Origin: a virus
Taxonomy: Duplodnaviria > Heunggongvirae > Uroviricota > Caudoviricetes
Direction: 5' to 3' (one strand)
Length of the DNA: 64,000 nucleotides
Virus record (IMG/VR): IMGVR_UViG_3300028805_000044
Shown here: one piece after another, positions 36,013 to 39,597 of the stretch
Numbering within the stretch: position 1 is the first letter of the stretch
Layout: every line of letters starts with the position of its first letter
Notes under the pieces: model-generated
The model's database searches: none
What the model saw: only the letters and a program-made list of their open reading frames with translations
What the model was told of the DNA's origin: nothing
Translations under genes and position numbers: made by a program

Positions 36013-37406
36013 AGCTACAAATAAGTAAAAACGCTAATATAAACTACCTATCTAAAGTGGTAGATATTCAGGAATTTGTAAAGCATCCTGATCCTAAAGT
36101 AGAAAGAATAAAGTGTGCTGTAGTAGATGGATTTATAATTACTGTGGGAATAGATAGTGAGCCTGGACTGTATATATATTTTCCAGTGTTGTCTCAGATA
36201 AATCCACAACTATTACAATATCTTAATTTATATAGAAATAAAGAAAAAAATAAAGATCCAGAGAAAACTGGATACTTTGAAGATAAGGGTATTGTTAAGG
36301 CTATTAATTTAAGAGGAGTAAAGTCTGAGGGATTTTTAATGCCCATGTCAGATCTACAGAACTTTATAGTAGATTCCGTAAATGCAGAATTAAAAGATAT
36401 TACTCCTAACACGGAATTTGATGAGGTTGAACATAATGGTAAAACCTTCTGGATTTCTAAGAAATATATAGCTCCTGTTCAGAAACTTCCCGGAACCTCA
36501 AGTTCTCCTAAGGAGAGAAAGAAAAAGAAAGGACTTGATAAAATTATTGATGAACAATTCCGATTCCATTATGATACAACCCTTATCAAAAAGTGTCCTC
36601 ACGTTATCAAGCCTGATGATATTATCCATATATCTTCTAAGTGGCATGGTACGTCTGGTATATCTGCTTATGTGCTATGTCATAGAAAGCTTAATTGGAA
36701 AGAAAAGATTGCTAAGTGGCTCACAAAGAATCCTTTTGATACATATGATTATATCTATTCGTCTCGCACTGTTATAAAAAACAGATATTATAATCAAGGA
36801 GTAACAGACGGTTATTATGGATGTGACGTATGGAAGTATGCTGATGATTTCATAAAGCCTTTCCTTATTAAAGGTATGACTATTTATTATGAGATAGTAG
36901 GTTATCTTCCAAATGGAGGTTGGATCCAAAAGAATTATGACTATGGATGTGAACCTCCTACTCAAGTTACAGATCCAGCTACAGGAGAAACCGTAGTACA
37001 ATATAAGCAAGGAAAGCATTTTAAAGTACTTGTATATCGTATTACTCTTACTAATGTAGATGGACAAGTACATGAGTTCTCTGCACACGAAGTACAAACT
37101 TGGTGTAGAAATAGAAGTTTACTTTGTGCTCTTGAATATTACTATGGATATGCTTGTGACTTATATTCAGATATTCCTAGGGACGAACATTGGAATGAGA
37201 ACTTCTTACAAAGATTAGCAAATGATAAAGGCTTTAATATGGAGCAGAATTCTCCAGAATGTAATAATCCAGTTCCACATGAAGGTCTTGTTATCAAGAT
37301 AGAGAATATGAAGAGTGAAGCTTTCAAATTGAAATGTTTCAAATTCTTAGGTTTAGAACAAGATGCAGCCCTTGCTGGTGAAGCAAATATTGAGGACAAC
37401 TCGTGA
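36009..37406 (+). CDS. RNA ligase (Rnl2-like nucleotidyltransferase) with N-terminal extension
   Basis: Motif I SKWHGTS, motif IV EGLVIKIE, motif V FKLKCFK. Confidence 0.6.
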   Translation: MKLQISKNANINYLSKVVDIQEFVKHPDPKVERIKCAVVDGFIITVGIDSEPGLYIYFPVLSQINPQLLQYLNLYRNKEKNKDPEKTGYFEDKGIVKAINLRGVKSEGFLMPMSDLQNFIVDSVNAELKDITPNTEFDEVEHNGKTFWISKKYIAPVQKLPGTSSSPKERKKKKGLDKIIDEQFRFHYDTTLIKKCPHVIKPDDIIHISSKWHGTSGISAYVLCHRKLNWKEKIAKWLTKNPFDTYDYIYSSRTVIKNRYYNQGVTDGYYGCDVWKYADDFIKPFLIKGMTIYYEIVGYLPNGGWIQKNYDYGCEPPTQVTDPATGETVVQYKQGKHFKVLVYRITLTNVDGQVHEFSAHEVQTWCRNRSLLCALEYYYGYACDLYSDIPRDEHWNENFLQRLANDKGFNMEQNSPECNNPVPHEGLVIKIENMKSEAFKLKCFKFLGLEQDAALAGEANIEDNS

Positions 37407-38248
37407 AAGCATTTACAATTAAACAAAGTATAACTAATAGAGATAGAGATTCAGTAAATCTTTATCTTAAGGATATTAGTCATATTAAAATGCTGACAGC
37501 TGAAGAGGAAAAGGAAATAGCTATAAAAGCAAAGGAAGGTGATAAAAGAGCCAAGGACAGACTTATCTCTGCTAATACAAGATTTGTAGTTTCTGTAGCT
37601 AAACAATATCAAGGACAAGGTCTTGATCTTGAAGACTTAATAGCAGAAGGAAATATAGGTCTTATTAAAGCAGCAGAAAAGTTTGATCCAGACAAAGGCT
37701 TTAAGTTCATCTCTTATGCAGTTTGGTGGATTAGACAGTCTATTTTACAAGCTCTTTCTGATAAGTCTAGAACTATTAGACTTCCTCTTAATCAAGTTAC
37801 CTTATTAAATAAGATACGTAAGGCTACAGCAGAATTTGCAGGTAAAAATGAAAGAGATCCTTCTCTTAAAGAATTGGAAGAAATTACAGGTATACCTTCT
37901 GATAAAGTCTATGCAATTCTAAATATGTCTGCTAAACTTATATCTGTTGATTCTCCATTTAAAGATGAAGAAGAAGGTACTTATATTGATATAATTCCAA
38001 ATCAAAATAGTCCAAAAGCTGATGCTGGACTTATGAAAGAGTCTAAAGAGGTAGCTATTGCTAAAGTACTATCCCCTCTCGGTCCACGTTCTCATGATAT
38101 AATAAGAATGTATTTCGGACTTGGAACAAGAGAAATGACTCTTACAGAAATTAGTGAAAAGTTTGGAGTTACTAGTGAGAGAATAAGACAAATAAAAGAG
38201 AAGGCTTTAGATATTATAAAGGATAATGTAAGAATGTATCTTAAATAA
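37403..38248 (+). CDS. sigma-70 family RNA polymerase sigma factor (sigma-A-like, 281 aa)
   Basis: Region 2 [19 protein letters not shown]...[13 protein letters not shown] and region 4.2 [23 protein letters not shown]. Confidence 0.8.
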   Translation: [281 protein letters not shown]

Positions 38249-38251
38249 AAT

Positions 38252-38599
38252 TTGAAGTATATGATAAAACAATGGTTAATAACTGCTGAAGCTCCATTAT
38301 GTGGGACAGAAACACATTACATCGCTTATTCTAAGGAAGATCCATTAAACCAATCTGAAGTGGAAGAAGGAATAATTCAAGATTTATGGGATAATTATTC
38401 TTATCTTTTACATATAGATGATGAAGAGTTTGACTCTGAGGAAGAAAGAGATGAAGCATGGGATCAAGCCTGGGAAGATTGGAGATGTGATTGTAATATT
38501 TATGCAGAAGAAGCAACTGATGAAGAGATAGAAATGAATGCTCCAGGAGGAGATGTTAATTGTTTGGAAATTGTTTACGACGAAAGAAATGAAGAGTAA
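38252..38599 (+). CDS. highly acidic small protein (DNA-mimic or anti-sigma candidate)
   Basis: 115 aa, very Asp/Glu rich (DDEEFDSEEERDEAWDQAWEDW). Confidence 0.4.
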   Translation: MKYMIKQWLITAEAPLCGTETHYIAYSKEDPLNQSEVEEGIIQDLWDNYSYLLHIDDEEFDSEEERDEAWDQAWEDWRCDCNIYAEEATDEEIEMNAPGGDVNCLEIVYDERNEE

Positions 38600-39269
38600 T
38601 TTTATTCATGTTTGTTTTATTATTGATGAAAGTTCATCAATGTGGACATCTGTTACGGATGTAAAAGAAGGATTTCAGAAAATTATAGAAGAACAAAAAG
38701 CTAATAAAGAAGGAACTTGTGCTATCTCTATATTTAGATTTGCTACTACTCCAAAAGAAGCAGACTTTGTAATGAAGGATATAAGAGAAGTAGAAGACGC
38801 TCTTAATTATAATCCATCTGGATGTACAGCAATGTATGATGGAATAGGTAAGGCTATAGATGAAATAGGTGAAAGACTTGCTGCTATGCCTGAAGAAGAA
38901 CGTCCTGAGAAGAACCTTATTGTTATTATGACAGACGGAGAAGAAAATTCTTCACATAATTACCAACCATCTAAGGTTCGTGAAATGATTAAACATCAGG
39001 AAGACAAATATTCTTGGACATTCCTTTATATAGGAACTGATATCTCTAATACTAGAGATGCAGATAGAGTTGGAGTAGGATATAAGTTTGCTACTACTCG
39101 TGGTAAGATGTATAAAGGTTATGATACTATTAATAGTGTTGTATCTTGTTATAGAAATACTTTAGGAAATGCACATACTAAGGGTGTTGCAATGTTTAAT
39201 GCTTTAGAAGCTGAGATTACTACTAATAATGCAGAATATTTAGCTGATACTGGTGTAAAGATTGACTAA
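38538..39269 (+). CDS. von Willebrand factor A (vWA) domain protein
   Basis: MIDAS motif IIDESSSM and a later VIMTDGEEN segment. Confidence 0.65.
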   Translation: MLQEEMLIVWKLFTTKEMKSNFIHVCFIIDESSSMWTSVTDVKEGFQKIIEEQKANKEGTCAISIFRFATTPKEADFVMKDIREVEDALNYNPSGCTAMYDGIGKAIDEIGERLAAMPEEERPEKNLIVIMTDGEENSSHNYQPSKVREMIKHQEDKYSWTFLYIGTDISNTRDADRVGVGYKFATTRGKMYKGYDTINSVVSCYRNTLGNAHTKGVAMFNALEAEITTNNAEYLADTGVKID

Positions 39270-39597
39270 TATGAAATACTATCTAGTAACATATGATGGC
39301 AATTATGCCGATGAATTTGATGTATACTTCCATGATGTAATGTCAGAGGAAGAATTGGAAGATGCAAAAAGACTAATAGGCAAAACAGAATGGATTGAAA
39401 GAGAGTTCTGGTTTGGAACCAATGAGAATATCGATGTTAATACAGCAGAACTTATGGAATGTTTAAACGAGTCCAGGGAACTTACTGAAGAGCAACTCAA
39501 AGTTCTACAAGAATTAGGACTTACACATATAAGTTTTGGAGATGGACTCAATTGGGACCATATTATTGATGACGCTTACGATTGGGTAAATGGGTAA
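39262..39597 (+). CDS. hypothetical acidic protein
   Basis: 111-aa ORF. Confidence 0.35.
   Translation: MTNMKYYLVTYDGNYADEFDVYFHDVMSEEELEDAKRLIGKTEWIEREFWFGTNENIDVNTAELMECLNESRELTEEQLKVLQELGLTHISFGDGLNWDHIIDDAYDWVNG

Follow-up and report, generated by a model that had tools for sequence, protein, structure and literature searches.

Phage sigma factors that redirect the RNA polymerase (RNAP) of the host to later phage promoters are exemplified by gp55 of T4 and by gp28 and gp34 of SPO1, all of them minimal or much diverged sigmas that are produced together with early or replication genes. Full-length proteins of the sigma-70 family, apparently derived from cells, are found in cyanophages S-CBS1 and S-CBS3, in Microcystis phage MaAM05, and in group 2 jumbo and huge phages. 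The RpoD-like sigmas of the group 2 jumbo phages, acquired from cells, have been proposed to recruit the host core polymerase (PMC7824862), and one huge phage is reported to encode its own sigma-70 while targeting that of its host (PMC7162821). A 2022 survey counted just two Bacteroidetes phages with any sigma gene. The present analysis concerns a sigma gene (37403..38248, + strand) in a stretch of 64,000 nucleotides, referred to below as the window, from the IMG/VR virus record IMGVR_UViG_3300028805_000044 (Caudoviricetes), together with the genes that follow it, the first two of which encode a highly acidic small protein and a stand-alone von Willebrand factor A (vWA) protein.

The window sigma shares with gp55, gp28, and gp34 the proposed role and a place among early or replication genes, but unlike these proteins, it is a nearly intact primary-type factor with all four regions. 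With the RpoD-like phage sigmas, it has in common its full length and apparent cellular origin, and here too no RNA polymerase gene is in view and recruitment of the host core polymerase is presumed. It differs from them in representing an independent capture from a different phylum, with an identity of at most 44% (deposited phage genomes hold no closer sigma), and in the loss of a specific arginine contacting the -35 element, which belongs to the present lineage. Redirection of host RNAP, as put forward in the initial annotation of this DNA, is the natural reading and has precedent in the literature (PMC7824862, PMC7162821). On balance, it seems somewhat more likely than not that an ancestor of the lineage captured the gene from the SigA of a Bacteroidota host, that it was inherited vertically thereafter, and that its product redirects the host polymerase, an estimate that covers the explanation as a whole, including the parts assigned to the neighbouring genes.

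A primary-type sigma gene and its relation to Bacteroidota SigA

The sigma gene begins with GTG and encodes 281 amino acids (aa) comprising regions 1.2, 2, 3, and 4, the architecture of group 1/2 (primary-like) sigmas. The earlier description of a complete sigma-A-like factor of Bacteroidota type is borne out by Pfam, in which all four regions score above their cutoffs: Sigma70_r1_2 (PF00140) at 47.1 bits (cutoff 22), r2 (PF04542) at 77.8 (cutoff 24), r3 (PF04539) at 52.3 (cutoff 25.3), and r4 (PF04545) at 46.8 (cutoff 24.1). In PHROGs, the protein matches phrog_351 at 1.4e-75. Since just 15 residues precede region 1.2, region 1.1 is lacking. Among the NCBIfam models, RpoS (247.6, cutoff 378.7) and RpoD_Cterm (224.8, cutoff 354) both stay below cutoff; genuine Bacteroidales SigA proteins also miss the RpoD cutoff (255.9-256.4 vs 354), which means that these models do not cover the phylum of the Bacteroidales. 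The gene is the only sigma gene in the window and is under strong purifying selection, with ratios of nonsynonymous to synonymous substitution (dN/dS) of 0.06-0.21, estimates in which dS is often saturated, as it is in those for the acidic and vWA proteins given below.

The closest cellular relatives of the window sigma are RpoD/SigA proteins of Paludibacteraceae/Bacteroidales (286 aa, 55-57% identity), and in the match list these bacterial proteins rank below the phage relatives. The best matches among species-representative genomes are also from Bacteroidota, and the best among solved structures, with much lower scores, are SigA proteins of Firmicutes. In a neighbour-joining tree, for which no bootstrap support was computed, the main phage sigma clade adjoins Bacteroidota SigA. 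The likeness to the host proteins extends to the length (281 vs 286 aa), to the absence of region 1.1, to an N-terminal ITxSITNR motif present in both, and to the helix of regions 2.3 and 2.4, which is identical. The differences lie in the location of the gene within a phage replication module and in region 4, where serine stands in place of R584 (E. coli numbering) and the basic patch and the tail that follow have been replaced. As for cellular genomes, the best match to the phage sigma in the genome collection (L056, 50% identity) is located on a 20-kb contig binned as Christensenella sp. UBA1685, a member of the Firmicutes; because the tree pairs this sigma with a Bacteroidaceae sequence, the contig is probably mis-binned.

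The residue changes were read from an alignment in which 62 closely and 30 more distantly related phage sequences were set against six named SigA proteins of bacteria and the sigma-70 of E. coli MG1655. A 20-residue segment of regions 2.3 and 2.4 is the same in phage and host SigA letter for letter, with the L and Q that are specific to Bacteroidota at E. coli positions 440 and 441. The ten residues that align to TYATWWIRQA of E. coli sigma-70 are likewise identical to those of host SigA and keep the residues for melting and -10 recognition, equivalent to Y430, W433, W434, and Q437. In all, approximately 20 positions are fixed differently between phage sigma and host SigA. In the recognition helix for the -35 element, E585, R586, R588, and Q589 are retained and R584 is lost, leaving the canonical set incomplete. 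The equivalent of R584 is S in the window sigma and in 62/62 close phage sequences, and none of the 16 loci with DNA ligase/p122/PolA synteny has R at this position, the residues there being S, Y, D, N, T, or G; R or K is retained by the host proteins and by several viral sigmas that are unrelated. In addition, the basic RRLRH patch behind the recognition helix and the C-terminal LLKSYLG tail of host SigA are replaced in the window sigma by a different stretch of 12 residues. In E. coli, R584 of sigma-70 contacts position -31 of the -35 element, and the R584A substitution alters the base preference at -31 (PMC2613000). Judging from these sequence comparisons, we infer that the phage sigma reads a -10-type element like its host counterpart and the upstream element differently or not at all. 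Of the regions 2.4 and 4.2 reported in the initial annotation, the former is indeed host-identical, but the latter has lost both R584 and the RRLRH patch, and for this reason the protein differs from a plain copy of the housekeeping factor.

The sigma belongs to a lineage of uncultured phages of approximately 160-195 kb of Bacteroidales-type bacteria. A protein identical to it is encoded on a 192,637-bp metagenomic contig, and relatives of 281 aa, ranging from 98% down to about 65% identity, are found on contigs of 186-192 kb and on IMG/VR viral contigs of up to 194.5 kb; a search of 50,697 deposited phage records gave no near DNA match to the window. Within the approximately 6-10 kb examined around each sigma in the relatives (loci designated by L numbers), the gene order DNA ligase, (RNA ligase), sigma, ..., (polynucleotide kinase/phosphatase, PNK), p122, PolA is kept in at least 12 related loci, and this synteny persists as sigma identity drops from 92% to about 41%. 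Sigma, p122, and PolA have nothing between them in the members farthest removed (L014, L015, L016, and L019), so the stretch between sigma and p122, which in the window holds the genes for the acidic protein, the vWA protein, a second acidic protein, and PNK, is a variable slot.

The GTG start of the window sigma overlaps the stop codon of the RNA ligase gene (GTGA). GTG or TTG is the sigma start in six of the seven close lineage members compared (the window, L002, L010, L011, L012, and L013), ATG being used only in L001, and in such members the gene usually abuts or overlaps the one upstream. This combination of a non-ATG start and an overlap suggests low or coupled translation of sigma. L001 (5928..6001) and L010 (7897..8001) have a short hydrophobic open reading frame (ORF; MFWTIAFCVYGIAAGICLGEYL...) between RNA ligase and sigma, which is absent from the window.

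The acidic protein family beside sigma

The ORF behind sigma opens at TTG 38252 and ends at 38599 (+ strand). It had been annotated as a 115-aa acidic protein, and its acidity stands out as described, with 35 D+E vs 6 K+R, an isoelectric point of 4.05, and a net charge of about -29, which makes it the most negatively charged of the 114 proteins predicted in the window, but the start is probably ATG 38261 (38261..38599, 112 aa), because relatives start at the matching residue. AlphaFold2 gives a model with a predicted local distance difference test (pLDDT) score of 92, a predicted template modelling (pTM) score of 0.81, and the topology beta-beta-alpha-alpha-beta-alpha-beta, and the conserved core of the family is hydrophobic and aromatic (W5, L6, I7, G15, Y20, W43, Y46, W74, C78, and others). 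The protein is under purifying selection and evolves faster than sigma (dN/dS 0.11-0.71). Going by the predicted model, it is a real folded protein.

It is also a new family. No match was found in Pfam, PHROGs, NCBIfam, or PADLOC, nor by tblastn against deposited phages, and a word-indexed search returned 33 clusters, all metagenomic and without names; an exhaustive profile search of 1.84 billion representative proteins yielded just 45 representatives. The predicted fold matches no anti-sigma factor, no DNA mimic of the Ocr, ArdA, or Ugi type, no polymerase inhibitor, and no other solved structure. The protein does have the trait of DNA mimics of being small, strongly acidic, and confidently folded, and it resembles T4 AsiA, T7 Gp2, T7 Ocr, and ArdA in being small, very acidic, and phage-encoded, with its gene beside a transcription gene.

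In 12 distinct phages, a family member is encoded no more than approximately 1.4 kb from sigma, on its upstream side in L004 and L008 and downstream of it in most. The member abuts or overlaps the end of sigma in the window, L010, L002/L003, and L009, as does a weaker member in L005, and it lies one small ORF further downstream in L001, L011, L012, and L013; in L008, it is approximately 0.8 kb upstream of sigma. The ORFs directly upstream of sigma in L004 and 1.4 kb downstream of it in L006 are, from their sequences, probable distant members: a broader hidden Markov model gives an E value of 4.5e-4 for the L006 ORF, and BLAST links run via family members P0167 and P0196. A firm family link of the acidic protein to these two ORFs was rejected, the profile-profile comparison reaching 40% probability over the N-terminal hairpin only. 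No member was found near sigma in L014-L021, at other viral sigma loci, or at 80 bacterial loci. That the family stays with sigma through some rearrangement lends mild support to a functional link.

Neighbouring genes and a probable transcription unit

The four tightly packed ORFs at 37403..39597 (+ strand) are all real. They are part of a dense, strand-coherent module for replication and nucleotide metabolism (Pfam, PHROGs) that includes helicases, a DnaB-like helicase, a primase, an anaerobic ribonucleotide reductase, a Dda-like helicase, DNA ligase, RNA ligase, PNK, a family A DNA polymerase, and thymidylate synthase. The longest ORF in the window is the PolA gene (757 aa), and the late giant proteins mentioned in the initial annotation are not visible there. 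No tRNA genes or Rfam families were found in the 64 kb.

The vWA protein reported downstream is confirmed as such, with a Pfam VWA score of 34.2 bits (cutoff 23.8), a match to phrog_7371 at 1.9e-40, and a complete metal ion-dependent adhesion site (MIDAS, DxSxS...T...D), whose segments DESSS, GCTAMYDG, and MTDGEEN the window shares with L001 and L002. Its start was misplaced: relatives begin at MKSNFIH, which sets the start at ATG 38589 rather than 38538 (38589..39269, + strand, 226 aa) and makes the gene overlap the acidic ORF by 11 nt. The protein is under purifying selection (dN/dS 0.13-0.28). Its supposed part in a sigma system finds no backing in its distribution: it is confined to loci whose sigma has 67% or more identity to that of the window (the window, L001, L002, L011, L012, and L013), and absent from L004-L006, L008, L009, and L014-L020. 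Among deposited phages, 187, with hosts in Streptomyces, Microbacterium, Pseudomonas, Gordonia, and Mycobacterium, carry homologues of 35-40% identity; in two phages inspected (of Gordonia and Pseudomonas), no sigma gene is annotated within approximately 4 kb of the homologue. The window protein resembles the stand-alone phage vWA proteins of phrog_7371, such as the "von Willebrand like protein" of Pseudomonas phage Kremar, in its single vWA domain with MIDAS, its length (about 200-270 aa in the group), its identity of 35-40%, and its place among replication or nucleotide-metabolism genes, with no distinctive difference, and it is treated here as accessory cargo unrelated to the sigma mechanism. 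In Gordonia phage Mareelih (L055), the homologue (4001..4633) lies directly beside an array of approximately 25 tRNA genes, and the window gene is located between those for RNA ligase and PNK; from such gene positions, a link of the vWA family to RNA metabolism is conceivable. The next gene (p111; 39262..39597, + strand) encodes a second very acidic small protein of 111 aa with a net charge of -20, matching phrog_27815 and with homologues in L001, L009, L012, and L013; it falls within the coordinates of the initial annotation, which makes no mention of it.

RNA ligase (36009..37406, + strand; phrog_968), which is directly 5' of sigma here and in most of the closer lineage members, and PNK (39590..40486, + strand; Pfam, PHROGs) form an RNA-repair pair. 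These RNA-repair genes flank sigma; in the distant relatives L004 and L006, the kit also includes a CCA-adding-type nucleotidyltransferase (PF01743) as well as a Thg1-like enzyme (PF04446), which suggests tRNA repair against host anticodon nucleases. The p122 family protein (40610..40960, + strand, real start ATG 40610) has no match in Pfam or PHROGs, carries a conserved WIGLGCNKG motif, and is always encoded just 5' of PolA; its gene is the most widely conserved one 3' of sigma and a more constant neighbour of sigma than that of the acidic protein. The apparent gap between PNK and p122 holds a 41-aa Cys-rich ORF (MRNCFGCGYHKMEKDSKGVPYHYCSDRDCRVDPHEPECNYD; 40492..40617, + strand), which overlaps the p122 start at ATG 40610, is conserved in L002, L011, and L013, and may encode a small zinc-binding protein.

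Farther along the + strand, genes for an ADP-ribosylglycohydrolase, an NAD synthetase, and a NUDIX hydrolase are clustered at 47922..48719, 50134..50967, and 51889..52527; the cluster is reminiscent of genes for NAD-related counter-defence that are described for Bacteroidota jumbo phages of the gut (PMC11662467). In the helicase/primase region, a gene for a LAGLIDADG homing endonuclease (15703..16605, + strand) follows one of the few good host-type TATATTTG boxes, at 15670.

Gaps on the + strand of the window are few, and in most relatives, sigma has no promoter gap of its own. Between 33000 and 45000, the only terminator-like hairpin on the + strand (43243..43262) is just 3' of PolA, and as no + strand terminator precedes it, the genes from sigma through PolA look like one transcription unit.

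Proposed redirection of the host polymerase and its alternatives

According to the favoured explanation, a primary sigma (SigA), once captured from a Bacteroidota host by the ancestor of the lineage and passed on vertically, would be expressed from the same transcript as the replication and RNA-repair genes, probably with coupled translation. Co-transcription with the genes upstream is indicated by the lack of a promoter gap before sigma and by the overlap of its start with the upstream stop codon. The protein would use its conserved regions 2.2, 3.2, and 4 to bind the core RNA polymerase of the host and would open promoters through a -10-type element read exactly as by host SigA, given the identical region 2.3/2.4 helix; the upstream (-35/-33) element would be read differently or not at all, given the lineage-wide replacement of R584 and the loss of the basic patch after region 4.2. 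The host polymerase would thereby be shifted onto a phage-specific promoter set, most likely that of later genes. The acidic protein would be a co-expressed, lineage-restricted accessory that might, as a guess, aid the takeover by binding a basic surface of the host sigma or polymerase, and the vWA and second acidic proteins would be variable cargo between sigma and the conserved p122-PolA pair, outside the sigma mechanism.

A number of points weigh against this explanation. TAnnTTTG, the -7 box of Bacteroidota, is not enriched in the window (66 observed vs 82 expected), E. coli-type promoters are there at chance level, and among Markov-corrected 8-10-mers of the window, no over-represented k-mer survives multiple-test correction. 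What R584S does to the reading of a -33 TTTG element of Bacteroidota type is extrapolated from E. coli, and expression timing and target genes are deduced from gene order alone. As for the acidic protein, neither its sequence nor its fold connects it to a known binder of sigma or polymerase; a strong second copy lies 5.7 kb downstream of sigma in L027 (the same contig as L005); and L014-L020 keep sigma with no detectable family member within 8 kb, from which it follows that sigma does not need the acidic protein. Moreover, nearness to sigma is weak evidence of a functional link because the whole neighbourhood is syntenic.

The promoter motif discovery called for in the initial annotation was run on the window, and no phage-specific motif emerged; a comparison of k-mers in the intergenic sequence (about 5 kb) with those of the whole window gave a best p of 3e-4 over 541 tests and nothing after correction. 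Two weak leads were noted. Of the six occurrences of ATATTTGA, a good -7 box, four fall in gaps, including one 32 nt upstream of the start at 15703 and one 56 nt upstream of that at 22704. The minus-strand block has four copies of TTTATAGA, all in gaps (55211, 55981, 56880, and 58172, - strand), and this word is a candidate phage promoter or regulatory motif, although picked after the fact and statistically insecure. The TTTATAGA sites are 40-237 nt upstream of a start, with an ATAGA-like word approximately 10-20 nt further upstream. The minus-strand block (53.5-64 kb) is about 21% non-coding vs about 5% in the + block, none of nine proteins tested from it (0/9) has a PHROG match, and relatives of the block, sought as a test of TTTATAGA, were not found.

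Other explanations assign the sigma or its neighbour different parts. That the acidic protein acts outside transcription, as an early counter-defence or host-interaction protein, for example, a DNA mimic directed against restriction or another defence that binds nucleic acids, and is near sigma through a collinear early module, is a possibility to be taken seriously, if a doubtful one. The synteny of the whole region from DNA ligase to PolA, by which linkage is expected anyway, agrees with it, as do the variable cargo gathered in the slot between sigma and p122 (vWA, p111, PNK, a 66-aa ORF, and a 190-aa ORF), the strong copy 5.7 kb from sigma, and the ADP-ribosylglycohydrolase, NAD synthetase, and NUDIX genes of the window, which suggest counter-defence; the family nevertheless keeps its place by sigma despite the flip upstream in L004 and L008 and despite differing cargo. 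A different alternative leaves the neighbours unrelated and makes the sigma an extra primary-type factor with essentially host specificity, which would boost or secure phage transcription from host-type promoters, for instance in several host species or during host shut-off. The host-identical -10-reading helix, the retention of E585, R586, R588, and Q589, a handful of host-type TATATTTG boxes that precede genes in intergenic gaps (such as those at 15670 and 22647), and the want of a distinct phage promoter motif in the window would all fit, but the consistent replacement of R584 and the remodelled C-terminal basic tail throughout the lineage point to changed specificity or regulation, and TAnnTTTG is not enriched overall; this alternative seems unlikely.

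The initial annotation had gone further, putting the acidic neighbour forward as a candidate anti-sigma factor or DNA mimic. In its full form, the phage sigma would replace the host housekeeping sigma, the neighbour would remove SigA, and the phage sigma would escape through its lost basic surface, a scheme to which we attach a low probability. It draws on the extreme acidity of the protein (net charge -29, top of 114 proteins), on the abutting or overlapping of the two genes in the window, L010, L002, L009, L005, and L004, on the loss from the phage sigma of R584 and the RRLRH patch that the host keeps, on the faster evolution of the acidic protein, as is often seen in antagonists, and on the precedent of the huge phage that targets host sigma-70 while encoding its own (PMC7162821). 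However, no domain was matched and no sequence or fold likeness to AsiA, Rsd, Gp2, Ocr, ArdA, or any solved protein was found, which leaves acidity and persistent nearness to sigma to speak for the proposal, and small acidic proteins are common in this genome region. R584 is moreover lost lineage-wide, including in L014-L020, which have no acidic member within 8 kb of sigma, and the idea of this loss as an escape from the acidic protein was rejected in that form. A longer shot still is the idea that the family represents a new Bacteroidota-specific takeover factor that binds SigA region 4 or a basic polymerase surface and to which the phage sigma is immune, the two proteins forming a matched pair. 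If true, this would be a pair that removes the host sigma and inserts that of the phage, and an acidic neighbour that binds sigma or polymerase would be the first such phage factor described for Bacteroidota.

Phages with their own sigma are already known, and the present case is a new example rather than a new principle, from an under-sampled host phylum. Its distinctive and testable feature is the lineage-wide loss of the -31 contact. Both the primary sigma and the promoters of Bacteroidota are unusual, and the ways in which their phages take over transcription are poorly known. This lineage of large gut/rumen-type phages amounts to a natural experiment, in that its sigma has exactly the -10-reading surface of the host and, throughout, a changed -35 contact; promoter specificity in Bacteroidota thereby becomes testable by the swap of one residue, and the lineage may offer an orthogonal sigma/promoter pair for the engineering of Bacteroides.

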